Origin: Candidatus Heimdallarchaeota archaeon
GTDB taxonomy: Archaea > Asgardarchaeota > Heimdallarchaeia > Heimdallarchaeales > Heimdallarchaeaceae
Direction of reading: 5' to 3'
NCBI GenBank assembly: GCA_021399395.1
Contig: JAAFKJ010000178.1
Location: 1 to 29,749, forward strand
DNA: 29,749 nucleotides
The translations under genes were made by a program, and so were the position numbers. Of the stretch, positions 5,324 to 29,749 are shown in pieces. A model generated the notes under the pieces. The model searched no databases. It was not told where the DNA came from and saw only the letters and a program-made list of their open reading frames with translations. Numbering within the stretch: the first letter of the stretch is position 1; every line of letters starts with the position of its first letter.

Positions 5324-6310
5324 TTAATCCATTTTTTCGCCACAGTTACCACAGAATTTGGCACCTGTTTCATTTTTGGACCCACAGTTGGTACAAAACT
5401 TCAATTTTCCTGATTTCTCATCATCTGTCGGATCACCACAGTGGGCGCAGAACTTCGCTGCTGGAGAGACTTTCTTTCCACATTGGTTACAATCAATAAA
5501 AGCTGCTTCAACATCACCTTTTTCTTCAATTTTGGTGGCTTGTTTTATTTCACCTCTAGAGAAAAGATTGTTAACCATGACAGCACCAGTCAAACCACTT
5601 CCACCTTCAGGGAGTTTTTCAACAACTTTAGCCATACCAGCATACTGTTGTACTTGACCTGCTGAAACACCAGAACGCATCCAGAAGAGTCTGTCTCTGT
5701 ATTCAGGTGTAGTATCAATGCCTCCAAACTTTAGTGTTTTTAGCTTGATTCCGAATTCTTTGAGATCAGGTTTTACTTCATCTTCTACGAAATCTGAAGT
5801 TTTTCCTAAATTGGACATTAGATCAACTATACTTTTTTCTGATAGTTTGCTAATAACAGATTCTACAATGAATGAACGGAAAAATTCATTGAATGCAGCT
5901 GTTGTATAGATATTTCTATTACCTGCTATTTCAAATGCGAATTTCTGTATGTCGTCAATCTTGTAGTAATAATCACCAAAGAATTGCACTGGAGCTAATT
6001 CTTGTGTTTGAGATCGCCCTCCGAATTTTCCTTGAAAGTCTGCCATATTTATGAAAATCACTTGACAATTGAATGGTGATTTATCAAATCCAACTATTTT
6101 CGACAAAAATGTTGTTAACAATGGAATATTCTTGGTTTTTATAAAATGTCTACCTGGTTTTAGAACATCAAAGACTACTGAATCTTTGATGAAAACTGCT
6201 ACCTGGTTAGGTAAAACATTACATTGGTCTCCCCAATTCAAAGTGTCACGAGGATGTCTGTACATTATCTCGTCGCCTCGACCTAGGGGCCATTCTATTA
6301 CTTCTACCAT
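5324..6310 (-). CDS. SPFH (band 7) domain protein with C-terminal double zinc ribbons (YdjI-like)
   Basis: N-terminal QCNVLPNQVAVFIKDS...LKPGRH...TKNIPLL, typical of YdjI-type SPFH proteins. C-terminal CNQC/CAHC and CTNC/CGNC. GAGGT precedes the ATG. Confidence 0.85.
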   Translation of the reverse strand: MVEVIEWPLGRGDEIMYRHPRDTLNWGDQCNVLPNQVAVFIKDSVVFDVLKPGRHFIKTKNIPLLTTFLSKIVGFDKSPFNCQVIFINMADFQGKFGGRSQTQELAPVQFFGDYYYKIDDIQKFAFEIAGNRNIYTTAAFNEFFRSFIVESVISKLSEKSIVDLMSNLGKTSDFVEDEVKPDLKEFGIKLKTLKFGGIDTTPEYRDRLFWMRSGVSAGQVQQYAGMAKVVEKLPEGGSGLTGAVMVNNLFSRGEIKQATKIEEKGDVEAAFIDCNQCGKKVSPAAKFCAHCGDPTDDEKSGKLKFCTNCGSKNETGAKFCGNCGEKMD

Positions 6311-9020: not shown

Positions 9021-10367
9021 TCATTCCTCTACATAGGATGATTCAGGGAGGAATTCTTCTTCCTTTTTATCTATTATCTCTTTACAGACAGGACATTTAG
9101 GATTAAATCTTAACCATGTTTCTAAATGATCTATGTGGTAGATATTTTCACACAATAAGCATTTTGCTATTTGGGTCCCTCTTTCAATTTTACTATTGCA
9201 TATCATACATTTAGGTAACAACTCTTCACAATTCCAGCAATATTCTTTACCTATTTCATTAGGTCTATTACAATTTGGACACCTAGTTAGTTTTCTATAT
9301 TTGAATACTCGTTTAGTTTTCTGAGCTGTCTTATATAGATACATTCTAGCATTACTGATATCTTCACCAAAGTGTTCTCTCCAATCTAAAATTGGTTTAA
9401 CTATTGCTATTCCGCATACTAGAGAAGATAATGCTATGCGTATTTCTAGTTCAAATATTCCTAAGAAATGAAATACTAGAAACATTGCCACTCCAAAAAC
9501 AAATAAAATCAGATAATTCCTAATGATAATAAATTTGATTGACTTCCCAATTACTTTGAAAACCTCAACAGTTTTTTCATAAATCCAAATCACAAACTTC
9601 TTCATAATTTGAGGAAACTGTTTGATAGCTCTCCACCATGCTTGGAACATAGTTGTGAATACTTTTCCAATTGTCACAAGTATTTCAGCGATTTCCCTTC
9701 TAAAGTGCCAAATGAGGTTGATTAGAATTAAACCTCCTCCAATTAGATACCAGTATAATGGTTTAATCCAAACTAATACTTGAACAGCTGTTAAGATAAT
9801 TACAGTTATACCTGCAACGGATAACAAATTCCAAGGTGATAGGAGTAATTTCCAGTTGATCTTCTTCCAAATATTCTTTATTGCTTCCTTAAGTTTCTTC
9901 AAGAGTGCGATTATTTTTAAATTCAGATCATACGCCTCAAAGAAGAAACCAAAAAGTATCAATATTGCTCCCGCTCCCATCATAATATAATAGATATAAT
10001 CACGATCAAATGCAGTCACACCAACAGCGAAAAGAATTGCAGGAAAAGCTACTAAAATGAATCCTATATATGCTGTTATTGCTCCGGTTACAAAGTAGTC
10101 TATCCCCTTTCTTCTTATTCTTCTTAGAATTAGAGCAAAGAACAAAATCAGTACTCCTATTACAAAGACTCCAAGAACTATTCTAAAGACAAGATCTTCG
10201 TAAGTCATATCCAGAGCTAAAGTAATGACTAAAATCCCAATTATGCTTAAAACTGAAATAGCAAATCCTATCCACAGAGTTGTAATAACAGGATTTCGCT
10301 CTACAAGACCAGGATCTTTAAGCTCCCCTTTCAAATCAATGGAATCCTTGCTGTTCATTTCTTCCAC
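9021..10367 (-). CDS. Polytopic membrane protein with C-terminal Zn ribbon plus RING-type finger (putative membrane E3 ligase-like)
   Basis: About 8 TMs, then CPNC...CWNC, then C-x2-C-x12-C-x2-C-x4-H-x2-H-x3-W-x6-CP-x-C with the RING-type W...CP signature. Confidence 0.75.
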   Translation of the reverse strand: MEEMNSKDSIDLKGELKDPGLVERNPVITTLWIGFAISVLSIIGILVITLALDMTYEDLVFRIVLGVFVIGVLILFFALILRRIRRKGIDYFVTGAITAYIGFILVAFPAILFAVGVTAFDRDYIYYIMMGAGAILILFGFFFEAYDLNLKIIALLKKLKEAIKNIWKKINWKLLLSPWNLLSVAGITVIILTAVQVLVWIKPLYWYLIGGGLILINLIWHFRREIAEILVTIGKVFTTMFQAWWRAIKQFPQIMKKFVIWIYEKTVEVFKVIGKSIKFIIIRNYLILFVFGVAMFLVFHFLGIFELEIRIALSSLVCGIAIVKPILDWREHFGEDISNARMYLYKTAQKTKRVFKYRKLTRCPNCNRPNEIGKEYCWNCEELLPKCMICNSKIERGTQIAKCLLCENIYHIDHLETWLRFNPKCPVCKEIIDKKEEEFLPESSYVEE

Positions 10368-12865
10368 CTCTCTCGAATCTGTTTGAGAAGTTCCTTTGAA
10401 CTACCAGTTCTTAATTTCTTTAATTCTCTTCTAAGTAGGATGAAAGCAACTACTGCTACAACATCGAAGAATGCACCTAAAGAGATTCTAATTGCAGGTT
10501 CAATTGCATCAAATATATGGAAGAAATCAAAATTGAAAATAACAAATATACCATATACCAGAGTGAATATCATCACTACGAGTAGAATCAGTCTAATACC
10601 GTTTTTGTAGATGTAAATTGAAACAGATTTGATTGCTAACAATATTGTAACAGATATTTTGTAGATAGTCTTAGGAATGCTAACTAGGAATTTCCAAAGC
10701 TTCTTTGGATGATAAATGAAATGTGCAAATAGAGTAAATGTACCTCCAATTGATACAATTAGGATAAATGCGACTAGACCGATAATATCATCAAATGCAA
10801 AATAAAGGACTACTCCAACAATTACAGCTGCGAATCCAATGACTCTTGAAATAATAATTCTTTTATTAAAGATGAATGTAAATATGGCTTTGAAAAATTC
10901 ATAGATCTTAACTAAAACAATCTTTCTACTGAACAAGCCACTAATAAGTATAACAGGGATTCCTATCCAAATTAGATAATCATAACCAACAAGAATTAAA
11001 CCATATACTATTAGAGTAACACCACCTGCCACTCCAATCAACCTTAATAGTTCTTTTGTGACGCTCCACCAATGTTTCTTGATGAATTTAGCAACTTCAA
11101 CCATCCAATTCCATATAGCTTTGAAGAAATCTACTATGATATTCAAAAAACGCAAGAAAGGATTGTAAAAGATCTTGATACCTATAAATTTGATACCCTT
11201 CCATACTTGTTTGTAGTGATGAACGGGGATGTAGCAAAAACTAATTACTAGTAGAACAATATACCACCATTCAAACATCCAGGTCACAGAAAGATAGATG
11301 ATTGCGGTAATTGCAACCAAATCTAGTATGTATAACAAGACCTTGAACCAGTTTTCAATGAAAAATTTAGTAAGATTAACTATGACCTTCCATATGTAGT
11401 TTAGTGGTCTCCCTAACCATTTTATAAATTCCCAAAAGGCTAGGGTTATTTCCTTAAGTGCTGCATATATCCTTCTTAATATTGTCATACGTATGAAAAA
11501 TTCTGCTAATAGAATTACTGCAATTCCAATATAAACAAAGTAATAGAAAACTTCATTGACAATTCCATAATAAATAAGGAAGATACCCACTCCAACAAAA
11601 ATCAATCTAACTGTTTCATTAATAATTCTCTTGTAATGTGGTTTGATAATATTCTCCCAGATGAAAGTGAAAATAGCTGAAATCATGTTCCACAAACCTA
11701 TCAAAACAGTTTTTCTAGATAGGATTATAGAACAGATGATAACTACAACACCTATGCCTATGAAGTAAGAAAACTGATCATATACTGTTCCATGATAGAT
11801 GAGATAAGCTCCACCACCAGCTCCAATCAATCTTAATAGCTCTTTTAGAATGGGCCACCAATATTTGAGAATAACTCTTGCAAAAGCAACTATCAGATCC
11901 CATATGAACGATGTAATTGAGGTTAATACATCCCATAACATAGTTAATACAATTTTTCGGGTAAAAACTACACTTATAATTGCAGTTAGTATCCCTAATC
12001 CTATCAAAAATCTGTATTCAACTATTATCACACCAAAATAGATCATTACTCCCCCTCCTGCAGCTCCACTCCATCTGAAAAACTCTCTGAGAATAACCCA
12101 CCAATATTCCTTTATGAGTTTAGCAAAATTGACTAAGCCTTTCCAAATTGAAGTAAGAATCAATTTAAAGAAATTATAAAATTTAGTTAGGACTAAATAA
12201 ATCATATCTACTGCAACATGTTTTATAGCATTCCATATTCTTTTGTGGTGATGAATAATTGGGAAAGCACAACTTACTGAAAGGATTATCATCTTCCACC
12301 AATTAACTTCCCAGAAGATTGCCACAAAAATTATTCCAGCCAGAGATGCTAAATCAAGTGTATAAAGAATGATGTTTAACCAATGTTTTCGAACCCATTT
12401 AGCAAATTTAACCATTAGTTTCCAGAGCTGTTTGAATGGCTCTACAAATAGTTTCCAGATGAATTGATCTAAAAATGTAAGTTCAACAATAATCCCCAAT
12501 ACTATTGACCCTATCCCCCAATATACGAAAAATCTATAACCAAGATAACTCAGATTTAAATTTTCTAGAAATGAGATATTCTTACTAGTTGACATTAGAA
12601 TCAGTAAAAATCCAATAACGACAAAGAATATACCAACTTGTATTTTCTTATTAACTGTCAAATTGTATCTCAGCATCTGTACTGTCAAGTAAAAAACAAT
12701 GACAAGAGAACTCACAATTAGAGAGATGAAGAGGATATCGTTGAGTAAAGCAATTTCCTCGATTACTAGAGAAAGAATAAACATAGTAACGATGATAATA
12801 ACAAAAGAATAGTAAAATACATTTGATAAAACATTATGTACTCTTTTTTCCTTCTCTAGCTCCAT
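10355..12865 (-). CDS. Large repetitive polytopic membrane protein (TM-hairpin plus amphipathic-helix repeats)
   Basis: 836-aa ORF in which hydrophobic helix pairs alternate with W/K/F amphipathic stretches. Overlaps the downstream RING gene by 13 bp. Confidence 0.8.
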   Translation of the reverse strand: MELEKEKRVHNVLSNVFYYSFVIIIVTMFILSLVIEEIALLNDILFISLIVSSLVIVFYLTVQMLRYNLTVNKKIQVGIFFVVIGFLLILMSTSKNISFLENLNLSYLGYRFFVYWGIGSIVLGIIVELTFLDQFIWKLFVEPFKQLWKLMVKFAKWVRKHWLNIILYTLDLASLAGIIFVAIFWEVNWWKMIILSVSCAFPIIHHHKRIWNAIKHVAVDMIYLVLTKFYNFFKLILTSIWKGLVNFAKLIKEYWWVILREFFRWSGAAGGGVMIYFGVIIVEYRFLIGLGILTAIISVVFTRKIVLTMLWDVLTSITSFIWDLIVAFARVILKYWWPILKELLRLIGAGGGAYLIYHGTVYDQFSYFIGIGVVVIICSIILSRKTVLIGLWNMISAIFTFIWENIIKPHYKRIINETVRLIFVGVGIFLIYYGIVNEVFYYFVYIGIAVILLAEFFIRMTILRRIYAALKEITLAFWEFIKWLGRPLNYIWKVIVNLTKFFIENWFKVLLYILDLVAITAIIYLSVTWMFEWWYIVLLVISFCYIPVHHYKQVWKGIKFIGIKIFYNPFLRFLNIIVDFFKAIWNWMVEVAKFIKKHWWSVTKELLRLIGVAGGVTLIVYGLILVGYDYLIWIGIPVILISGLFSRKIVLVKIYEFFKAIFTFIFNKRIIISRVIGFAAVIVGVVLYFAFDDIIGLVAFILIVSIGGTFTLFAHFIYHPKKLWKFLVSIPKTIYKISVTILLAIKSVSIYIYKNGIRLILLVVMIFTLVYGIFVIFNFDFFHIFDAIEPAIRISLGAFFDVVAVVAFILLRRELKKLRTGSSKELLKQIRERWKK
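10700..12450 (-). repeat. Protein-level tandem repeats (~75-95 aa) inside the 836-aa membrane protein
   Basis: Type A units at aa ~162 and ~506 (WxxxxLYxLDL...WW...HHxKxxWxxIK). Type B units at aa ~255, 336, 411 and 599 (WWxxx(K/R)ExxRxxG(A/V)xGG...IYxG...IG...SRK). The A-to-B distance is 93 aa in both copies. Confidence 0.8.
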
Positions 12866-12963
12866 CTAGCTATCTATGTTTGCTTATTATTTAAGTATTA
12901 ACTATTCGTAATCTTAACACATTACATGCTTGCAAGTCTCAGAAATTTAATTATGAAGAATGA

Positions 12964-14331
12964 CTAGGGTAAGGGATGTAGATAATGCCTATCTACATCT
13001 ACATATTCCTCTCCGTTGTAAACTAGATATTCAGCATGTACATCATGTAATTCGTTATACTTCTGATACCAAGGTGATGTCCCAAGTAATGACCATTTTT
13101 CAGCAATTTCTTTGCTTATCGAAATCTTTTTTTCATTCTCCATTGCTATTTTTATTGATTCTGCAAGAGAAAGAGAGCATGCCAATATAACAGCTGTTGG
13201 AGTTGTTCGAATTGAGGAAAAATTCCAGAGTCTTGTCTTAGCTACAATATAATTAACAATCTCTGCAGGAAAGATTTCTTCGTTTATATTTGATTTTTCT
13301 AAGAGTTTTGTAACCAATTCTTTCAGGTGTGATTCATTAAAAGGGAATTCTTTGGAAATGTCATATACATCAAAACTTTCATCTACAAAAGAAGAGATAT
13401 CTTTTCCTCCCGAAATAATAAAAAGATTGATTTCTTTTTTAGGATACTTTGATTCCATTTTCTGTTTCAAAACGTGAATATCTATATCTATCTCGTCAAC
13501 AAATAATACTAGATTTTCTCCTGGAGATTTTTCCACAACCCATTCAGTGACACTTTCAGCAGAATTTTCCGGGTTAAATTCTACATCAATATATTTTCCA
13601 TCGTCTCCCTTCCAAAACTCAGTTCTATAGATGAATGGCAAAGAAAGATCTTTACACCTTTTCATCAAAGAGTAACAAATTTGAGTTTTACCAGAACCAC
13701 CATATCGACCATAAATGTGCGCGTTCTTCTCAGGTTGAATACCTTCTTTCATTTGGGTAAGTGTTTGATCAAGTATTTGTACCAACGAATGATCTACAAC
13801 AAAATCGTGTCTCATCCAGCAACTATCAGGATTAACGAGTGGTGAATATTGTTTATAGTTGCTAAAGATATCTAGGGCGTCCTCTCTTGTAAAACCTATA
13901 TTTATTTTTAGTATTTCTGTTTCATTATGAGGAAATGGAATTGTCGGAATAACATCTGAGCCATAGAGGAGTGTTCGTGTATTCTTTAGATTAATCTGGT
14001 CTTCTGGCAAGAGACAGTGGTTATTCCTAATATTAATGTGCCACAGATTAGTTTTAGTACGTATATAACTTCTTGAAAATGAATTTGCAAGTCTTACACC
14101 TTCCTCCCAACCAAATTCATCTTGTAGTTTGTCATAAATTAAATCGATGAGTAAAAGATTTTCGAGACTGTAATCAGATTCAGATATAATAATGACTAAC
14201 CCTTCACGCTTTTCTAGAATTTTATCAAAAAGAGTGATTTCCTTATCAAACTCATATACTGCAATGATCTCTGGAAAGATAAGTAATAGTTTTTCAATAA
14301 ATGATTTGAGTATGTCTTCTCTCGAGCTCAT
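12964..14331 (-). CDS. P-loop NTPase (AAA+/STAND-like) with a degenerate nucleotidyltransferase-like N-terminal domain
   Basis: Walker A HIYGRYGGSGKT and Walker B LVLFVDEID. The N-terminal LLPEDQINLKNTRTLLYGSDVIPTIPFP resembles the neighbouring gene's LSPADDFMIMKQGEVLYGVDLRKHFPIP. Confidence 0.65.
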   Translation of the reverse strand: MSSREDILKSFIEKLLLIFPEIIAVYEFDKEITLFDKILEKREGLVIIISESDYSLENLLLIDLIYDKLQDEFGWEEGVRLANSFSRSYIRTKTNLWHINIRNNHCLLPEDQINLKNTRTLLYGSDVIPTIPFPHNETEILKINIGFTREDALDIFSNYKQYSPLVNPDSCWMRHDFVVDHSLVQILDQTLTQMKEGIQPEKNAHIYGRYGGSGKTQICYSLMKRCKDLSLPFIYRTEFWKGDDGKYIDVEFNPENSAESVTEWVVEKSPGENLVLFVDEIDIDIHVLKQKMESKYPKKEINLFIISGGKDISSFVDESFDVYDISKEFPFNESHLKELVTKLLEKSNINEEIFPAEIVNYIVAKTRLWNFSSIRTTPTAVILACSLSLAESIKIAMENEKKISISKEIAEKWSLLGTSPWYQKYNELHDVHAEYLVYNGEEYVDVDRHYLHPLP

Positions 14332-14341
14332 CTGAGTATAC

Positions 14342-15241
14342 TTAGAGGTTCTCTATTATATTTCTTATCTCCATGAATATTCTACTAAAATTTGCATGTC
14401 CTTGGTCTTCTTTGTAAAGAGATTTTAGGTCTGGTACAAATATGCCCTTAATCGTGAATGCTTTTTCCAAGCAAAATAATAAGAGTTCCCGGCTATGTTC
14501 TACTACCCCCATAACACTAGATAAAGAGATATTCCTTTGCCTACACATCGCTACTTCTACAACGAAATCACCTAACTTGCTAAGATATTCATTCGAGAAC
14601 CAATATGCTCCCTTCATTTTCCCAATTATGTCATTATTTTTTATGGAAAACAATACTCTTGAAAGGTAAAGTATCCAATTTGTTGCATGATCATAGTTTG
14701 GGGAATCAGTATGTTGGAAAGGATACGATTTTGCGACTTCTTCTATATTTGGAACCTCTGCTAGAAACTGATGCCAAAAACACTCTATTGGTGGTATAGG
14801 GAAATGCTTTCTCAAGTCTACGCCATATAATACCTCGCCTTGTTTCATAATCATGAAATCATCAGCAGGAGAAAGAGGATATTGGTTGATTATCTCTTGT
14901 TGAAGATTGGCAACTACCATTCCTTCCAAATCTTGGTGATTAATTCTTGGATTTTCTAACATGATATAAGGAACAAAATATGCCCTAAGTATCTGGGAGA
15001 AATCCTTATTCATGGTTGAAAGTTTATCTATAATCGAATCAAGTTCGTTGAAATCTTTTTCCCATAACCCCTTTTCTAAAACAATTATAACCTTAATAAG
15101 ACTGTATCTTTTAGAAAAATCATCTAAAACGACATCACCAAAGAGGATGAAAGATCTCGTTGCAAGAGATGTTGCTGTGAATTCTACAAAAGTTTTGAGA
15201 AATCTAGGTAGCTCTGGATACCTTCCATAGGTGACTTGCAT
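14342..15241 (-). CDS. Nucleotidyltransferase-fold protein, aminoglycoside adenylyltransferase (AadA/DUF4111)-like, apparently catalytically inactive
   Basis: FILFGDVVLDDF...SLIKVIIV aligns with the hhhGS...SDxDhhh motif. GEVLYG and ILYLSRVLFSIKNNDIIGKMKGAYW match the ANT C-terminal helical domain. The catalytic aspartates are absent. Confidence 0.65.
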   Translation of the reverse strand: MQVTYGRYPELPRFLKTFVEFTATSLATRSFILFGDVVLDDFSKRYSLIKVIIVLEKGLWEKDFNELDSIIDKLSTMNKDFSQILRAYFVPYIMLENPRINHQDLEGMVVANLQQEIINQYPLSPADDFMIMKQGEVLYGVDLRKHFPIPPIECFWHQFLAEVPNIEEVAKSYPFQHTDSPNYDHATNWILYLSRVLFSIKNNDIIGKMKGAYWFSNEYLSKLGDFVVEVAMCRQRNISLSSVMGVVEHSRELLLFCLEKAFTIKGIFVPDLKSLYKEDQGHANFSRIFMEIRNIIENL

Positions 15242-15289: not shown

Positions 15290-15318
15290 GAAAAAAATAA
15301 GAAAAAGAAAGAAAAAAG
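15290..15318 (-). terminator. Oligo-T terminator tract downstream of the pilin-like gene
   Basis: A-rich tract on + directly after the stop codon at 15322. Confidence 0.45.
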
Positions 15319-15321
15319 ATG

Positions 15322-17100
15322 TTATTGATCTACAAAGAATATTTGCCAAACACCCAATTCTTGAATATAAAATCTAATTTCAAAATCAGCCTTGTCTGTT
15401 CTATCAAAGTAGTCAAATAATATCGTTAATTTATGAATACTTCCTCCATCTAGAACTGCTCCTGTACCACCATTAACTGGTAGAACACTTTCTTGAGCAT
15501 ATGGCTGTCCTGTGGGGTCTAACCAGATTGTTCCATCGGTGTTATCTCTCATCTCAAAGATGTAATCTGCTCTATTATCTGGTTCCCAATCAATATAGAT
15601 TTGAGTAATAGTAATTTCGTTTGGTAAGTTGTTTGTGAGGAAGAAACTAAATGTGCTTCTAGAGAAAAATCCTCTTACACCTACAGCTCCAGATAATGTC
15701 ATTTTTGGATTAGCTACAGACATTAGAATAATAGTTGTTTTTGCATTCATGGCATCAGAAGAATCGTATACAAATGTTACCATTGCGTAATCATCATCTG
15801 GTAATAGATAGCTGTTGAAATCTAGTTCCCATGTTTTATCAATGACATTATATGTAGCTTGATCGTCGATTACATTCTGGTAAAGATAGTAAAAGTCGGT
15901 TGTTTGACTGAAGAAGTAGATGTCAAAGTTTGTTGTATCAATTCCAGATGGATCGTCTGCATAAACCTCAATTGTCAATACTCCTTCTATACCTACAGAA
16001 TTGTTTTCAGGTGTTAAAACATATGATGTTGGTGCGAGAATATCAACTAATGAGAATGCTTTACCTGAGCTATTCAAGTTCCCTACTGCATCTTTTACAT
16101 AAAGTGTAAGAGTAAAATCATCTTCAGCCATAATTGCAGTCTTAAAACCCAACAAATCATAAGATGTAATAGTGTCATCAGTTGCTGTAAATACAGATTC
16201 TGAATTATGAACATCTCCTGATAGTACTAGAGTTTGATTGATTACTGGAGCACCACCTAACTCATCCCACACCCAAGTAGCATTCAAATAATCACCTTGG
16301 TTAATGGATGAATTACTCAAACTCAATGTAACACCGATTGCTTTGTTATCAATATTGAAGGTATTAGTTATAATGTCGGACTGGTTTAAAGCATCATTTA
16401 CAGCGAAGGTCATTTTATATCCTAAATCGTCATCATAATCAGTTGAATCAATGTCTGTTGCTAGATTTTCATCATCAAATACAACAGTTTGATCAGGCAA
16501 AAGGAAATCATAAGTTACACCTGTAGGTAAATACCCTCCAGACACTAATACTTGAGGATCTATAATGCCTTTCACCCAACTACCGTTTATAGGATTTAAA
16601 ACTGTTAACTCTAATGGGTAAATTACACTGGCGTGATTCAAATTTTCTGGAGCAACTGTACTTAAACCATCGCTATAAGTAAGTATTATCTGGAAATTAT
16701 TAGTTCCTACTGAAATATAAGCTGATGGATCAAAAGAAATTGCTATATCCATTCTTGCGGTAACATCGAGCGTTAAAGGAAGCTCTTCCACAACCAGTTC
16801 TGCATTATCAATTGCTATATTCTCTGCTAGAGCATCATTATTTACTGTAATTGTAATATTTGATATTATAGTGCTCGCCGATCCAGAATTTTGTAAAGTA
16901 ATATAGACTAGATCTGTAACATCGTCACCATCACTATCGAACCATTGGGTAGTAACAATATTTACGCTAGCGCTCCCCCTTAATAAGGGTACAACAATAA
17001 AGTAGACCATTGCGCTTGCTGCCACTACTAAACTTATTAAAAGAACGGTTGCAATGACTGGTGAAACGGCTCTTTTTAATTTTCTTATTCTTCTATTCAT
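15322..17100 (-). CDS. Archaeal type IV pilin/archaellin-like N-terminus fused to multiple Ig-like beta-sandwich domains (large minor pilin/adhesin)
   Basis: Class III signal peptide MNRRIRKLKRA|VSPVIATVLLISLVVAASAMVY; LQNSGS motif; D/T/N-rich beta repeats such as YVKDAVGN, DILAP...TPENN and ADDPSGID; GAGGT precedes the ATG. Confidence 0.85.
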   Translation of the reverse strand: MNRRIRKLKRAVSPVIATVLLISLVVAASAMVYFIVVPLLRGSASVNIVTTQWFDSDGDDVTDLVYITLQNSGSASTIISNITITVNNDALAENIAIDNAELVVEELPLTLDVTARMDIAISFDPSAYISVGTNNFQIILTYSDGLSTVAPENLNHASVIYPLELTVLNPINGSWVKGIIDPQVLVSGGYLPTGVTYDFLLPDQTVVFDDENLATDIDSTDYDDDLGYKMTFAVNDALNQSDIITNTFNIDNKAIGVTLSLSNSSINQGDYLNATWVWDELGGAPVINQTLVLSGDVHNSESVFTATDDTITSYDLLGFKTAIMAEDDFTLTLYVKDAVGNLNSSGKAFSLVDILAPTSYVLTPENNSVGIEGVLTIEVYADDPSGIDTTNFDIYFFSQTTDFYYLYQNVIDDQATYNVIDKTWELDFNSYLLPDDDYAMVTFVYDSSDAMNAKTTIILMSVANPKMTLSGAVGVRGFFSRSTFSFFLTNNLPNEITITQIYIDWEPDNRADYIFEMRDNTDGTIWLDPTGQPYAQESVLPVNGGTGAVLDGGSIHKLTILFDYFDRTDKADFEIRFYIQELGVWQIFFVDQ

Positions 17101-22760: not shown

Positions 22761-22815
22761 TCCATCCATCACCTTTTTTTGAATTCCTAAAACTTAAAAT
22801 TTAAAACGACAGTTG

Positions 22816-23745
22816 ATGATGTTTTTTGAGAACCTAATGGAAGATTTACTAATACTTGAGAAGAAAGGCATCCCAATAACGATTATTGGCTTACCTTATG
22901 TAGGGAAAACCACACTTGTCAACTGGCTTAAAAATGAGAAATTTACTAGACCAAAACCCTCAGTAGGAGTAAACTTCGAACAGATTAAGGTAGGAGATTT
23001 AATGTTAAATATTTTTGATATTTCAGGTCAGAAATCTTACAGATCCACCATTTGGAAGTCTTATGTTATGACTTCAGTTGGTATTATATTTACTATTGAT
23101 TCAACTGACAAAGAACAGATAGATGAAGTGGCAAAATGGTACTGGATTATGATTGATGAATGGTTAAAAGGGAATTACTCAGATAAGGTTATACTCTTTT
23201 TAGCTAATAAAGCAGACCTTAAAGATTCATTAAATCTAGAATATATAATTGATAAACTCAATTTGACAAAAATGTCAAATTATCCAGATTTATCATTTCA
23301 GATTTTTAAAACATCAATCAGAGAAAATCAAAATATAGAATATGCAATGAAATGGTTTGTTAAGAAAGTTAACCAACTCATCGAAATTCAGAGAATAACT
23401 CCTGAAGCAATTCTTATCTCAGACACTTCTGGTAATATTATCAGTTTATATGATCCCAATAAAATCATTGAGGATCCAGATATGTTTGTTGGGTATTTGA
23501 AAGCTTTAAGCGGGTTTACTAATGAACTGTTAGGTCATGAAAAGTTTAAAGTAATCAAGGTGAATCCATTCTTCTATTTCATAACTGAAGAGGAGGATTA
23601 TTGCATTTCAATTGCTGTCAAGGATGAATTAACACTTCCCGAAGCAAGAAGACTTTCTTTTCTAATTCAAAACTATCTGAGTAAAAACAAGAAGAATTTA
23701 GACCATGAAGAACTCAATGTGTATATCCACTCGCTTTTTTCTTAG
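22816..23745 (+). CDS. Arf/Sar1-like small GTPase fused to a C-terminal longin/roadblock-like domain
   Basis: G1 GLPYVGKT, G2 KPSVG, G3 FDISGQ followed by YRSTIWKSY (Arf-like R..W..Y), G4 ANKAD, G5 TSI. The C-terminal region from 23401 has a longin-like beta-beta-alpha-beta-beta-beta-alpha pattern (AILISDTSG...YLKALSGFTNEL...). Start TTG 22813 or ATG 22816/22819. Confidence 0.85.
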   Translation: MMFFENLMEDLLILEKKGIPITIIGLPYVGKTTLVNWLKNEKFTRPKPSVGVNFEQIKVGDLMLNIFDISGQKSYRSTIWKSYVMTSVGIIFTIDSTDKEQIDEVAKWYWIMIDEWLKGNYSDKVILFLANKADLKDSLNLEYIIDKLNLTKMSNYPDLSFQIFKTSIRENQNIEYAMKWFVKKVNQLIEIQRITPEAILISDTSGNIISLYDPNKIIEDPDMFVGYLKALSGFTNELLGHEKFKVIKVNPFFYFITEEEDYCISIAVKDELTLPEARRLSFLIQNYLSKNKKNLDHEELNVYIHSLFS

Positions 23746-25324: not shown

Positions 25325-26305
25325 TTAGAATCTATAAGTATAGGATAATTCCATGTACTTCGAAGCAAGATCTACAAATTCTGTTTTCTTTTGCTCAGAT
25401 TGCTCTTGTATGGACTGAGAGAAATAAACTTTGGCTCTTACATAAGCCCTATACGACTTATAGAAGTGAATTATAGGTGAATCTGGAGTTAGATTTTCTT
25501 CAGTTTGCTTAAGGTATGAAGATAAAAACAGATTAGATTTTTGTGCCATTTCATGGAAATCTAAATCCATAGCTAGAAACGTTATTTCCTCCAGGATATC
25601 TTGAATTCTCAGCATTTCATTAAATTCTATACAATCAAAAATAATAACACCTTTATCAGATTTGAAAATATTTGCTAAAATCAAATCCCCGTGACCATCA
25701 ACAATTTTTCCTTCTTCACCCCTTTTCTCAAAATAATCCTTGTGATTTTTTAGATATGCATAAACTCGTTTCTCTAAATCTTCATTAAAAGGAAACTTAG
25801 GGTAAGATTTAGTTGTTCGGAAATTCTCATCCCATTTTTCAAAGATATTATCAAATACCGAAAATTTGGGAGAAATAATATTTTTCTGGTGAAAATCAAA
25901 TATTGTTTTTGCTAGGTCAACTAACAGCTCATTAGAGATATCTTTACCTTTGTTTACTTGTTCTAACAGCAGGTCACTTTGATCTAATTGTTTCATCTTG
26001 ACCAAACACTCTATTGGTGACCCTTCACCTGATATTTTGAAATCAGATGTCAGTGAAACACTCTCAAGATATATTGATGATGCCAATCGTCGATTGAATA
26101 CAATCTCATTCTCACATGCTGTACATCTCTTTTCTAGTGTTGAGAAGTCTAAAATTTCACCGAATTTGATTTCCTTCTTCATTTTGTACGCAAAAGAACC
26201 TGTAAGAAAAACCCAGCTTATATTAGTCTCAATTACTTGAATATTCAAGTCAGTATTATGAGGATAAATTGAGGGTTTACTTAATAATTCAACTTTTTCT
26301 TTCAT
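25325..26305 (-). CDS. Aminoglycoside-phosphotransferase-like kinase (N-terminal half of the Rv2004c-type bifunctional APH/ATP-binding family)
   Basis: IETNISWVFLT, AYKMKK, LDFSTLEKR, HGDL..NI, FDCIEF, FLAMDL and FYKSYRAYVRAKV. Start ATG 26305 (upstream ATGs to 26317). Confidence 0.85.
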   Translation of the reverse strand: MKEKVELLSKPSIYPHNTDLNIQVIETNISWVFLTGSFAYKMKKEIKFGEILDFSTLEKRCTACENEIVFNRRLASSIYLESVSLTSDFKISGEGSPIECLVKMKQLDQSDLLLEQVNKGKDISNELLVDLAKTIFDFHQKNIISPKFSVFDNIFEKWDENFRTTKSYPKFPFNEDLEKRVYAYLKNHKDYFEKRGEEGKIVDGHGDLILANIFKSDKGVIIFDCIEFNEMLRIQDILEEITFLAMDLDFHEMAQKSNLFLSSYLKQTEENLTPDSPIIHFYKSYRAYVRAKVYFSQSIQEQSEQKKTEFVDLASKYMELSYTYRF

Positions 26306-26864
26306 AGATAGCATCATTAATCATTTTTAGAATTGTTTCATGGTCTGTGCCCATATCGACGTCTAGATGACGTAACTTGGTTGGTTCAAATAATTGTTTG
26401 AATTTCTCATAAACTTTTGAATCTGCATCACTTAAAGTTCTTCTTTCTCTTTTTTCTCTCTCTTCGAATCTCTTTCTGATGGTTTCTTCGGGGCACGTAA
26501 CTATAACGAGTAAGAATTTTGCATTGAAACGATCACAAATTCTACTAACCTTAGCCCTCATTCGATCTTGATAAAAAGTCCCGTCTAACACACAGCCTAC
26601 ACCGTGTTTTAGTAAGGTATAGAGAACATAGTAGATGGTGTCATATACAACCATCCTTTGTCTATTAGAGTAAGAACCACGCCCGAAGTGGTCTCTTCTT
26701 ACATCTCTGAAAATTCTCTTTCTAATTGAATCAGTACTAATATGCTCTAACCTATATCGGCGGGATAGTTTTCTTGCTAGTGTTGACTTTCCTGTTCCTG
26801 GTAATCCTGCTAATAATATTACTATGGGAGGTCTTTTCTTATATCGGTTAGAGATGTGTGTCAC
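26289..26864 (-). CDS. P-loop kinase, AAA_33/gluconate-kinase/PNK-like (C-terminal half of the Rv2004c-type family)
   Basis: GLPGTGKSTLA, STDSIRK, VLDGTF, lid RKRFEER and SDAD; GTG start overlaps the upstream TGA. Confidence 0.85.
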   Translation of the reverse strand: MTHISNRYKKRPPIVILLAGLPGTGKSTLARKLSRRYRLEHISTDSIRKRIFRDVRRDHFGRGSYSNRQRMVVYDTIYYVLYTLLKHGVGCVLDGTFYQDRMRAKVSRICDRFNAKFLLVIVTCPEETIRKRFEEREKRERRTLSDADSKVYEKFKQLFEPTKLRHLDVDMGTDHETILKMINDAIYERKS

Positions 26865-29749
26865 TTCCTTTTGACATGATCAGGGCACTTGTAAAGTTTT
26901 TCTTCTTTGAACATCCCTTTCTTCTCTATCTCTTTTGAATGTTTCTTACAAAGAACCTTTTTACAATTAGAACATCGCACTATATGCTCTTCACAAACAT
27001 AATCATCACAGAAGTCACACTTTGTAGCTATTTTTGATGATATCACATTCTTACAATATGAACAAATTACAGCATGCTCGGAACATAGAATAGAGTTTGT
27101 AGTACTATCAACAATAGTATGGTCTTGACATAATACTTTTCCACAAACCGAACAAACATCTGGTGTCGAAATAAAAAGCATTTTTGCAGAATGTTTACTC
27201 AAACACATATCACACAGCAGATGAATCTCAGTACCAAGAACAGATTCAGCGATACCATTTACTTTGATTTGATTTCCTTGTGAATCAACTATAGATATCT
27301 CTGCTAATGAAACTGGAATATATACCAAAGCTGCATAAATATCTTTGATTTCTGACGATTTTGGTGTGATGAAATCTTTCTTGTTAATTATATGTTTGCT
27401 TTCATCTAGCATCTTAACTTTGGGTGAGGTTTTGATCATTTTGTCGATTTCTTTGATTCTAGCTACACCATTTTCAACTTCCTTAACGAAGTTCTTCACC
27501 ACTTCTGGACCAAATCTGATGGTTTCAATAGCTTTGTTGTAATTTCCAACTTCTCCTGTGCTCTTGTACTTGAACTTATCTTGCATCAATGGTTTTAGGG
27601 TGACATAGATGGCCTTCGCTTCCTCAATTTTAGCTTTGAATTGTTTCACTTTCTTTCTCTTATCATCTATTATTGTCCAGATCAGATCTCTTTCCTTTTC
27701 TAATTCCTCTAACCAAACTTTAATTTCTGCTTTATGCTCATCTTCTATCTTGAGTAACCCTTCATTTATGGCACTAGACCACGCGTCCACATAGAAAGTA
27801 TGATCAATAAGCAACACATCATGGAAAGATTCGAGAATGCTTTCTGGTTTTCTTTGTACATTGAGTTGTTTAATATTTGATGAAGATGGAGCAAATAAAC
27901 TCCCAAGATTCTTCATTGGTAGTATGGAAATTAATTCTTCAAATACTTCTTCAGGTTGAATAGGAATACTAGTTTCATTCCAGACTTTCTCCCCATCCTT
28001 GAATTCAATGCGGTCAACTAATGGGAATATTCTTTTTATTGGTAGTTCTAGAATAACTTCTTCCCATCGTTCTGCATTTGCATAATATACTTTTATTCGC
28101 CGATTTGCTTTGATTTGAAAGTCTAAGTAGAGGAAAGGAAGATAAGCTAATTCGAGATTTTCTGTACCTAGATATTTGATTTTTTCTCTACCAAAAAACT
28201 TCTGTAAAAGGTCCTTAAAATCTACAGGTTCATACTTGAGATATTGTTCTCCCATTGACTTAACAATATGGCTTAAATCAATAGATTCGATAATTTCAGG
28301 CTTTTCCGCTATTTTAGTTACAGGAGTTTCTTCAAGAGATTCTTCGGATTCTTCAACTTCAGATTCATCATCAAAGATTTCAGGTTCGATGTCAACTTGA
28401 TCATCCAATAAACTAGAGGATTTAGTTAGTTTACGAATTATTGAGAGTTCTTTTTCTAAATCTTCTAAATTTAGTTCTTTCTCAATATCTTCAAAATCTA
28501 CTGAATCAATATCATGATCGTAATCACCTATTTGTTTACATAGAGTTGGAGGAGGTAATTCATACATTCGTGCTACATCTTCATCTGATAGAGTTTTATG
28601 GATCGAATACAATCTCCTAGTAAGAATATGTACTGGAGCTTTGAAATTGTCTGGAGATAAAACGTAAAACTCTCCACTTCTAAATTTTGGAAGTTGATCA
28701 ACTATGAATCTTGCTTCAGGATGAGACTGAAGCATCTTATCAACAATTCTCAAATCTTGAGGAGTAACAAACCTCCCAAAGAGGAATGTACTCACTTGCC
28801 CAAAAGCTTTGTAGTCTACATCGCTGATATTTTGTGTAGCAACTAACATTGATAAACCAAACTTTCGTCCTTGTTTAAACAACAGTTGTAACCATTGTTT
28901 AGTAGGTGGATTTCTGGGATGAGGAGGGATCAATTGAGGTGGTCCTGCTAACTCATCTATATAGAAAATAAGTTGAGGATCAGAAGAGGGGTTTGAACGG
29001 ATATAGGTGTAGAGACTTTGAGCTAGGGTTGTAATATATAGTTCTCTTAACCTCAAATTGGCTAGAGTATTAAGAAATATAATCGCAATTCTAATTTTAT
29101 CGGGATCAGTTGATTTGATTAAAGTCTGAATAGATAATTTAGGTCCTAAGTTAAAGACTAGGGAAGGAGCCCCAACTGTTACTGATTTTATTCTCTTGAT
29201 TAATGATTCTTTTTCTCTAGTAGAGAGAAGTGATCGTATACTACTAGAAAGATAAGCTTCTTCTGTTTTTATCAGATCAATCAACATTTCAAAATCAGCT
29301 ATCAAAATGTCTTTCTCTAAACATTGCTCGAAAAGAGAAACTAGATAGGCTTTTACAGCCCCTCCCTTCTCTGAATTAAGTTTGTATCTTAAAACATTAG
29401 CCATGGTTGTTGCCATACCATCGATAGCTAGAATTTTCTCTTCCCTATCTAGTTCCTGAGGAGGCATTATTAGAGGATTTATAGAAAGAGGAATCCCCTT
29501 TTCAGATGCTGGTGTGAAAATTACTACTTCAATTTTGTCCTTATATTGATTATAGAATTCCTCTGAAATCCCATAAGGTTTAAGTTTTTCATAGTCCTCT
29601 ACCATTGCTAAACAGCTGATATCACCTTGAGGATCAATAATAATTGCAGGAATATTTGCTTTACTAATAGCTTCCTCAATTATGATCTTACAAGCTACTG
29701 TTTTTCCACTTCCAGATTGCCCAAAGACACTCACATGCTTGTTAAGCGC
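26861..29749 (-). CDS. HerA/FtsK-family ATPase (DUF87/DUF853-like) with acidic linker, coiled coil and C-terminal Cys/His Zn-binding repeats; 5' end lies outside the window
   Basis: The frame is open to the window edge (ALNKHVSVFGQSGSGKT). IIDPQGD, IFTPAS, Walker B FYIDE, arginine finger QGRKFG, sensor ATQN; many CxxC/CxxH pairs at the C-terminus. Confidence 0.85.
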   Translation of the reverse strand, partial: ALNKHVSVFGQSGSGKTVACKIIIEEAISKANIPAIIIDPQGDISCLAMVEDYEKLKPYGISEEFYNQYKDKIEVVIFTPASEKGIPLSINPLIMPPQELDREEKILAIDGMATTMANVLRYKLNSEKGGAVKAYLVSLFEQCLEKDILIADFEMLIDLIKTEEAYLSSSIRSLLSTREKESLIKRIKSVTVGAPSLVFNLGPKLSIQTLIKSTDPDKIRIAIIFLNTLANLRLRELYITTLAQSLYTYIRSNPSSDPQLIFYIDELAGPPQLIPPHPRNPPTKQWLQLLFKQGRKFGLSMLVATQNISDVDYKAFGQVSTFLFGRFVTPQDLRIVDKMLQSHPEARFIVDQLPKFRSGEFYVLSPDNFKAPVHILTRRLYSIHKTLSDEDVARMYELPPPTLCKQIGDYDHDIDSVDFEDIEKELNLEDLEKELSIIRKLTKSSSLLDDQVDIEPEIFDDESEVEESEESLEETPVTKIAEKPEIIESIDLSHIVKSMGEQYLKYEPVDFKDLLQKFFGREKIKYLGTENLELAYLPFLYLDFQIKANRRIKVYYANAERWEEVILELPIKRIFPLVDRIEFKDGEKVWNETSIPIQPEEVFEELISILPMKNLGSLFAPSSSNIKQLNVQRKPESILESFHDVLLIDHTFYVDAWSSAINEGLLKIEDEHKAEIKVWLEELEKERDLIWTIIDDKRKKVKQFKAKIEEAKAIYVTLKPLMQDKFKYKSTGEVGNYNKAIETIRFGPEVVKNFVKEVENGVARIKEIDKMIKTSPKVKMLDESKHIINKKDFITPKSSEIKDIYAALVYIPVSLAEISIVDSQGNQIKVNGIAESVLGTEIHLLCDMCLSKHSAKMLFISTPDVCSVCGKVLCQDHTIVDSTTNSILCSEHAVICSYCKNVISSKIATKCDFCDDYVCEEHIVRCSNCKKVLCKKHSKEIEKKGMFKEEKLYKCPDHVKRK

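Follow-up and report, generated by a model that had tools for sequence, protein, structure and literature searches.

What is the role of an ATPase that begins with a nucleotidyltransferase (NTase) fold and is encoded directly behind a second NTase-fold protein? This question is raised by contig JAAFKJ010000178.1 of Candidatus Heimdallarchaeota archaeon (29,749 nucleotides; hereafter, the window is this whole stretch), on whose minus strand the open reading frame (ORF) list places a gene for a 299–amino acid protein, followed after 10 nucleotides (nt) by a gene for a 455–amino acid protein (Table 1). The contig has a GC content of ~33% and belongs to the family Heimdallarchaeaceae, as indicated by the sources of the homologs and by a genome search. 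We refer to the two products as the NTase and the ATPase. An earlier note had described them as a dead NTase and a dead NTase–ATPase fusion that may form a sensor-switch system. Our answer is a tentative one: we consider it possible that the pair is a lineage-specific two-protein ATPase switch, whose NTase folds bind rather than catalyze.

The upstream gene encodes a predicted NTase and HEPN-like fusion without the DxD carboxylates

The AlphaFold model of the NTase has a predicted local distance difference test (pLDDT) score of 78, with the lowest confidence at residues 39 to 45. The top Foldseek matches of the model were the aminoglycoside-modifying enzymes AAD(9) (6sxj; E 2.3e-6) and AadA. 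Structural comparison with VIA aligned it with 7uy4 (Z 10.9, root mean square deviation (rmsd) 10.9, 222 residues aligned), 6sxj (Z 10.7, rmsd 9.5, 216 aligned), and ANT(4') (6nlt; Z 8.9, rmsd 9.8, 214 aligned), and these full-length matches spanned residues 8 to 265, that is, both domains. Residues 1 to 150 show strands and helices in the order typical of NTases, and the N-terminal half matched the minimal NTases 8xeh (Z 8.1, rmsd 3.0, 97 aligned) and 1no5 (Z 7.0, rmsd 3.2, 99 aligned). The C-terminal half was similar to HEPN proteins, including YutE (1ylm, over residues 152 to 269; Z 7.7, rmsd 3.5, 115 aligned), the HEPN toxin 8xdj (Z 6.2, rmsd 3.3, 109 aligned), and the HEPN domain of sacsin (Z 5.7, rmsd 3.7, 109 aligned). 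At the level of sequence, the Pfam family AadA_C stayed below threshold (E 0.0033; 18.0 bits against a cutoff of 22.2) and PF01909 (NTP_transf_2) gave no Pfam match in the window protein; precomputed annotation assigns PF01909 or PF13427 to some of its relatives. The HEPN-like domain lacks the Rx4-6H motif of RNases, and the alignment contains no invariant histidine in residues 151 to 299. PMC3710099 describes KNTase-type enzymes as fusions of a minimal NTase (MNT) with HEPN, the latter providing the substrate-binding domain; such fusions may derive from MNT-HEPN modules, and fused HEPN domains typically lack the RNase residues. Judged from its model, the window protein has an NTase fold but not the DxD carboxylates, and it joins a minimal NTase to a HEPN-like domain in the manner of KNTase/AadA.

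The register of the active site was provided by a sequence match. In searches of the PDB, single proteins and narrower alignments gave nothing usable, and only the wider NTase profile matched the solved minimal NTase 1ylq (E 0.016). As this alignment pairs 'LFGG..LDDFSKKYSDIDIVVVL' of the profile with 'LYGS..SDIDVAIV' of 1ylq, L48 and K50 of the window protein fall on the two aspartate positions of the metal-binding D-x-D. In the hG[GS] region, G35 is retained and is followed by D36. Among the 16 wider relatives, 13 retain the D-x-D in the arrangement GG...DxD; thus, the family was ancestrally a normal-looking NTase, and the dead state belongs to this sublineage. The label given by the earlier note is therefore right for the window protein and wrong for the family as a whole. 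Over 23 loci of Heimdallarchaeaceae, both acids were present in 5, only the second acid in 13, and neither in 5, the window included. Position 48 was occupied by L, K, N, Q, T, S, V, D, or E and position 50 by K, N, D, or E.

The downstream gene encodes a predicted noncatalytic NTase fold joined to an AAA+ ATPase

The model of the ATPase (pLDDT 89.7; predicted template modeling score 0.88) begins with a domain of which residues 2 to 143 aligned in VIA with AAD(9) (6sxj; Z 9.2, rmsd 3.2 Å, 125 aligned). This structure is the best PDB neighbor of the domain and also heads the Foldseek list of the NTase. In a protein atlas, 18 of the 30 clusters nearest to residues 1 to 145 were annotated as NTP_transf_2 (score 0.90). 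The order of secondary-structure elements is the same as in the model of the neighboring NTase, and P0110, the most divergent relative of the ATPase, begins with 'SIVLFG', as does the NTase family. Together with the profile alignment described below, these agreeing observations, none of them decisive alone, support the assignment of an NTase fold to the N terminus, which the earlier note had proposed for the first ~135 amino acids. Pfam detected no NTase family in this domain in any of 12 superfamily members. The domain carries R42 and G44 at the place of the DxD, as well as YEF at the place of the G[GS]. G44 is invariant in 25 sequences, and an acidic pair at the DxD place was found in none of the 12 superfamily members. 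As far as the alignments indicate, the domain is without catalytic residues in every relative examined, in line with the lack of DxD first noticed in the window.

The remainder of the ATPase resembles AAA+ proteins. VIA aligned the core and lid (residues ~158 to 428) with the Orc1/Cdc6 structures 2qby_B (Z 12.6, rmsd 4.0, 223 aligned) and 1w5s (Z 12.6, rmsd 4.3, 231 aligned), many classical AAA+ proteins scored Z 10 to 11, and Foldseek matched the core to 2qby, p97, and proteasome Rpt subunits. Homologs of the ATPase numbered 54, all at 100% coverage, with identities down to 46%. Walker A is one residue longer than GxxGxGKT, with R209 in the first P-loop position, and Y207, R209, G212, G214, K215, T216, and Q217 are invariant. 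In Walker B (FVDEID), D279 and E280 are invariant, and E280 is so across the superfamily. Thus, the long Walker A and the VDEID sequence pointed out in the earlier note are both present, with invariant key residues. The segments FPFNESHLKELV and IVAKT...TP, which the same note had compared with helical domains, are located in modeled lid helices (residues 333 to 346, 356 to 365, 378 to 399, and 407 to 416; the VIA alignments reach residues 417 to 428). Ahead of the core, R174 is conserved without exception throughout the superfamily. We found no match of the ATPase to Pfam, NCBIfam, or PADLOC and no sequence relative in the PDB. The fold comparisons support the prediction that the C-terminal part is an AAA+-type ATPase with intact Walker A and B and is structurally closest to Orc1/Cdc6.

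The winged-helix domain of Orc1/Cdc6 is absent; instead, 39 residues follow the lid and are modeled as a short β-hairpin. No other part of the protein is as conserved as this tail, in which 11 of 39 positions are invariant. Throughout the superfamily, the members from Clostridia included, H432, E434, and D447 are near-invariant, and the tail may be a metal or ligand site. In the window, it reads HDVHAEY...D.HY.HPLP (amino acids 417 to 455; 12967-13083). Conservation of both the N-terminal domain and the tail equals or exceeds that of the ATPase core.

The NTase folds of the two proteins share some sequence. An ungapped BLASTP alignment of residues 117 to 150 of the NTase with residues 101 to 134 of the ATPase contained 11 identities in 34 positions (pairwise E 0.016). 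The common segment has the spacing L.P.D-x10-LYG.D-x5-P.P and is in register in both proteins; the segment had been noticed earlier, with dot counts that were merely schematic. Profile-profile comparison of the NTase with the ATPase N-terminal domain, a check that the earlier note had proposed, gave 149 collinear columns (E 0.005, probability 7%), and hhalign with the wider ATPase alignment gave 146 (E 5.5e-4, probability 30%). A second common stretch in the profile alignment is (L/I)D.I.DKL. The kinship of the two folds at the level of sequence is suggestive, not decisive.

Distribution of the two families and linkage of their genes

A profile search among 1.84 billion clustered representatives found 25 proteins of the ATPase family at E ≤ 0.001. 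In a class-wide census of 83 genomes, the window's own counted, the ATPase occurred in 29 of the 30 other genomes of the window's family, the sole miss being a 1.2-Mb bin. A second family had it in one of two genomes, and the other five families of the class, with 50 genomes in all, gave no match. A 301-genome sample of the phylum yielded no further occurrence, and the window's own genome contains one copy. Thus, a rare and unannotated family is near-universal and single-copy in one Asgard family, where it would mark a lineage-specific cellular function. The NTase was found in 26 of 30 genomes of Heimdallarchaeaceae.

The ATPase family is also represented in Clostridia, by a divergent clade of ~490–amino acid proteins with the same architecture (seven loci, L044-L050), which gives it a cross-domain distribution. 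Their hosts are Haloimpatiens, Sporosalibacterium, a Clostridium sp., and several metagenome-assembled genomes, and the proteins carry the motifs YGRLNGSGKSQ ... DFHCEYIVFDG. In a phylogenetic tree, the clostridial and archaeal clades were split at 100/100 support, but with no root and with long branches the tree does not tell in which direction a transfer would have gone. A metagenome scan for an intermediate clade returned only ordinary loci of the Heimdallarchaeaceae type. We found no description of a dead NTase fold joined to an AAA+ core in the libraries and full-text literature searched, nor is it mentioned in the consulted portion of PMC7159879.

In the window's genus, 19 of 20 loci have the NTase gene directly upstream of the ATPase gene, and the 20th starts at a contig end; both loci of a second genus show the same order. 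Promoters and spacers were surveyed at 17 of these loci (15 from the window's genus and 2 from the second genus), with 4 short-flank loci left out. In all 17 (L003-L023 set), the core GAAAA[GC]CTAATA ended ~22 to 24 nt ahead of the NTase ATG, the spacers between the two genes were ~9 to 22 nt in the other loci, and T-rich runs preceded the promoter-like element there as in the window. By analogy with archaeal promoter architecture, this element, which resembles a B recognition element (BRE) and TATA box, is a putative promoter of a leaderless bicistronic NTase–ATPase unit, and these archaea may use it as their local promoter consensus. The two genes co-occur: both are widespread in the family, and they are adjacent in two genera. 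The pairing is nevertheless not obligate.

The gene before the NTase encodes a 592–amino acid pilin-like protein (17100..15322) with an archaeal type IV pilin N terminus, or class III signal peptide. It was found upstream of the NTase wherever this could be assessed in the two genera; in a third and a fourth genus, too, it has kept the ancestral locus. The equal synteny of the pilin-like gene led us to consider a functional link, which we did not adopt: a T-run and a distinct promoter element separate this gene from the pair.

A possible two-protein ATPase switch

Under our tentative model, the NTase and ATPase genes would be expressed as one transcription unit. The 455–amino acid protein would be an ATP-hydrolyzing AAA+ switch or remodeler, and its noncatalytic NTase-fold head would serve as a docking or ligand-binding module. 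The ancestor of the 299–amino acid protein would have carried the DxD and become, in this lineage, a pseudoenzyme under strong purifying selection, which would keep the ability to bind a nucleotide or other ligand in the conserved pocket, the ATPase, or both. By touching the head of the ATPase through NTase-NTase or NTase-HEPN contacts, it would tune ATP turnover or assembly. Contacts of this kind occur in KNTase dimers and in MntA-HepT. The folds, motif states, operon signals, co-occurrence, and selection emerge from the analysis itself; we infer the binding roles of the two NTase folds, contact and regulation between the two proteins, and ATP hydrolysis by the ATPase.

Several observations weigh against this model. 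In two complete genomes of the third genus, the genes are ~190 to 250 kb apart; the NTase is at the ancestral locus near the pilin, hypB, and SPFH genes, and the ATPase has moved. The NTase was not found in two further ATPase-bearing genera (genomes 89% and 91% complete), and the syntenic locus of one of the two contains no remnant of it. The ATPase homolog of the second archaeal family has no adjoining NTase, and none was found in that genome. Conversely, a DxD-bearing relative of the NTase from a third archaeal family, on a contig that begins inside the NTase gene, has no ATPase downstream and none was found in its genome. In Clostridia, the ATPase stands alone in seven loci with varied neighbors, and an NTase of this family was present in none of five genomes, bar one weak generic match (E 0.004). 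Furthermore, synteny in related genomes is inherited, which makes adjacency within one family weak functional evidence. Statistical support for homology between the two NTase folds is modest, with hhalign probabilities of 7 to 30% and a Z score of 9.2, against the 7 to 8 that unrelated models typically reach. Last, with regard to an arginine finger and a sensor 2 arginine, the superfamily as a whole has no invariant arginine from Walker B up to the lid, R375 being conserved only in the archaeal clade, and ring-type AAA+ hydrolysis is therefore not assured.

Many of these observations would be expected if the two genes were independent neighbors, with the ATPase working alone as in Clostridia, the NTase having an unrelated role, and the adjacency being inherited family synteny. 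The split in the two complete genomes favors this explanation. So do an ATPase unaccompanied by the NTase in two genera, one further archaeal family, and five of five clostridial genomes, an NTase unaccompanied by the ATPase in a genome of yet another family, and the fact that the pilin-like gene and hypB are as syntenic as the pair. We nonetheless regard it as doubtful. Independence leaves unaccounted for the spacers of 9 to 22 nt combined with a single conserved promoter-like element before the first gene (17 of 17 loci in two genera). It also sits poorly with two proteins that both have an NTase fold, the same best PDB neighbor, and a collinear profile match, and with the decay of the DxD in the very lineage in which the NTase adjoins the ATPase, when 13 of 16 wider relatives retain the motif.

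Conservation and selection of the NTase

The surroundings of the lost motif are the best-conserved part of the NTase: 48% of residues 28 to 56 are invariant, as compared to 26% for each whole domain. The LDDFSKRYS sequence that flanks the DxD site is invariant in the alignment, as are D40, D41, D104, and E106. Between the same genome pairs, nonsynonymous divergence was 0.085 to 0.19 for the NTase and 0.17 to 0.30 for the ATPase, so that the NTase changes at about half the amino acid rate of the ATPase. Synonymous divergence was saturated, and omega was ≤0.11 wherever it could be computed. By these measures, the protein is a putative pseudoenzyme that is maintained under strong purifying selection, not a decaying gene. 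This stepwise loss of catalytic residues under strong purifying selection would offer a view of pseudoenzyme evolution.

The varying state of the DxD also allows a more far-reaching scenario, which we consider improbable. An MNT-HEPN fusion derived from toxin-antitoxin-type modules would have been captured in the ancestor of Heimdallarchaeaceae as the regulatory subunit of an undescribed pseudo-NTase/AAA+ ATPase, which is shared only with some Clostridia. The DxD would then have become dispensable and decayed lineage by lineage, so that species with D-x-D may still nucleotidylate the ATPase and the window's lineage would control it by binding alone. If true, these archaea would present a natural series from an enzyme to a pseudoenzyme regulator.

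Alternatively, the NTase could still be an enzyme in which D40/D41 of LDDFSKRYS or D104/E106 replace the DxD. It would nucleotidylate a small molecule or a protein, possibly with the ATPase as its helper or substrate. The invariance of these four residues, the high conservation of the pocket segment, and the strong purifying selection are consistent with this idea, and relatives carry both Pfam NTP_transf_2 and the D-x-D. However, positions 48 and 50 vary freely, which is unexpected under maintained metal-dependent catalysis, and the model is least confident at residues 39 to 45. We thus consider persistent catalysis decidedly unlikely.

Neighboring genes and the question of a defense function

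The order of genes on the minus strand is pilin-like gene, NTase, ATPase, an 836–amino acid membrane-repeat gene, and the gene of a 448–amino acid RING protein. From the stop codon of the ATPase to the start of the membrane-repeat gene (12865) there are 98 nt; ORF coordinates thus confirm both the 10-nt and the 98-nt gap between co-oriented genes that the earlier note had given. The same note had envisaged a four-gene system with the RING membrane complex, which we rejected on synteny. Of 20 loci of the same genus, 7 had the membrane-repeat gene downstream of the ATPase and 10 had a methyltransferase/M24 peptidase pair there instead; 3 were uninformative. In other genera, an SPFH gene follows the ATPase or the ATPase is relocated, and the membrane-repeat/RING pair was there in none. 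In addition, a second BRE/TATA-like element with two mismatches (12896-12908, minus strand) ends 30 nt before the start codon of the membrane-repeat gene. Because of this synteny and the separate promoter-like element, the RING pair appears to be a lineage-specific insertion beside the module and no part of it. More generally, the genes between the ATPase and the SPFH gene in the window look inserted, because SPFH immediately follows the ATPase in other genera.

The membrane-repeat gene encodes an internally repeated multipass membrane protein and overlaps that of the 448–amino acid membrane protein by 13 nt (9021-12865, minus strand). The latter ends in a zinc ribbon and a RING-H2 domain (zf-RING_2, E 5.7e-6; 26.9 bits against a cutoff of 27.3), and the two genes occur together again in two further genomes (L032 and L039). 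The SPFH/Band-7 protein (5324-6310, minus strand) carries C-terminal double zinc ribbons. Farther away, an Arf-family small GTPase with a C-terminal extension is encoded at 22813-23745 on the plus strand (PF00025, E 1.8e-31); Arf-family GTPases are eukaryote-like signature proteins typical of Asgard archaea. At 26289-29734 on the minus strand, the gene of a 957–amino acid HerA-type DUF87 protein is followed, with a 4-nt overlap, by that of a 191–amino acid AAA_33/zeta-toxin-like kinase.

Pairs of NTase and ATPase genes exist in known defense systems, and the earlier note had suggested a defense role. A system against viruses or in other conflicts, in which an NTase-derived partner would act alongside a STAND/AAA+-like NTPase that senses invasion, could draw on Hailong HalB and MntA/HepT among the weaker structural matches of the NTase, on weak nSTAND_NTPase5 matches in 2 of 12 superfamily members (best E 1.8e-4), and on the sporadic distribution in Clostridia (seven loci), but it seems very improbable in view of PADLOC models (CBASS and NTase-containing systems included) giving no match for the four proteins at E up to 1, a single-copy ATPase in 29 of 30 family genomes with stable synteny among housekeeping genes (HypA/B, M24 peptidase, FTR1, GT2, and SPFH), the lack of an effector domain and of Rx4-6H in the HEPN-like domain, the absence of relatives from phage, plasmid, and viral-contig collections, and the strong purifying, not diversifying, selection on both genes. 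The pair has the look of a family-wide housekeeping trait, not of a mobile defense module.

Table 1. Coordinates of the features of the NTase–ATPase locus in the window.
Feature	Position	Strand	Basis
Gene of 299–amino acid ANT/KNTase-like protein; NTase and HEPN-like domains, DxD lost in the lineage	14342..15241	−	ORF, Foldseek, VIA
Predicted NTase-fold domain of the 299–amino acid protein, amino acids 1 to 150	14792..15241	−	Model, VIA, profile match to 1ylq
Codons 48 to 50 (L-I-K), site of the metal-binding D-x-D in the 299–amino acid protein	15092..15100	−	Alignments, 1ylq register
Predicted HEPN-like/KNTase_C-type helical domain of the 299–amino acid protein, amino acids 151 to 299, without Rx4-6H	14345..14791	−	VIA, alignment
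Spacer between the NTase and ATPase genes, 10 nt	14332..14341	−	Sequence
Gene of 455–amino acid predicted pseudo-NTase/AAA+ ATPase fusion	12964..14331	−	ORF, model
Predicted noncatalytic NTase-fold domain of the ATPase, amino acids 1 to 145; R42/G44 at the DxD place	13897..14331	−	VIA, protein atlas, hhalign, alignment
Linker of the ATPase, amino acids 146 to 200, with superfamily-invariant R174	13732..13896	−	Alignments, model
Predicted AAA+ α/β core, amino acids 201 to 330	13342..13731	−	VIA, Foldseek
Walker A YGRYGGSGKTQ, amino acids 207 to 217	13681..13713	−	Alignment
Walker B hhhhDE, amino acids 274 to 282 (D279/E280)	13486..13512	−	Alignments
Predicted AAA+ lid, amino acids 331 to 416, with FPFNESHLKELV and IVAKT..RTTPT	13084..13341	−	Model helices, VIA
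C-terminal tail of the ATPase, amino acids 417 to 455, H(D)xHxE...D and β-hairpin	12967..13083	−	Conservation, model
BRE/TATA-like element CGAAAAGCTAATA, ending 24 nt before the NTase start codon	15266..15278	−	Exact match
T-rich run directly after the stop of the pilin-like gene, archaeal-terminator-like	15291..15318	−	Sequence; other loci similar

Comparison with known systems

The predicted arrangement of the NTase, with a Pol-beta-type NTase followed by a helical KNTase_C/HEPN-like domain, is that of ANT(3'')(9)/AadA, ANT(9)/AAD(9), and ANT(4')/KNTase, and an enzyme of this group (6sxj) is also the top NTase match of the ATPase N-terminal domain (Z 9.2). In contrast to the aminoglycoside NTases, the window protein lacks the DxD, and its similarity remains below the Pfam family thresholds. 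Its gene is archaeal, conserved across one family, and adjacent to an ATPase gene, with nothing that ties it to antibiotics. The combination of a minimal NTase with a HEPN-like part also recalls the type VII toxin-antitoxin system MntA-HepT (structural matches 8xeh, 5yep, and 7ae2). However, in the window, the two parts are fused in one chain and lack both Rx4-6H and DxD, and there is no sign of toxicity or mobility.

For the ATPase, similarity to archaeal ATPase_2 (PF01637) was detected below threshold in the relative P0093 (E 1.4e-4), and the similarity to STAND NTPases (PF25199) consists of the nSTAND_NTPase5 matches mentioned above, which are below the curated threshold. Unlike these proteins, the window ATPase has neither sensor repeats nor effector domains. 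With Orc1/Cdc6, p97, FtsH, and RFC, it shares the α/β core and helical lid, the lysine and threonine of Walker A, and the aspartate-glutamate pair of Walker B; it differs from AAA+ ATPases in that its family has no superfamily-invariant arginine finger and matches no Pfam or NCBIfam model. Last, as compared to Orc1/Cdc6, its closest structural neighbors, the ATPase has a P-loop with one additional residue, a conserved 39–amino acid tail in place of the winged helix, and a predicted pseudo-NTase at its N terminus.

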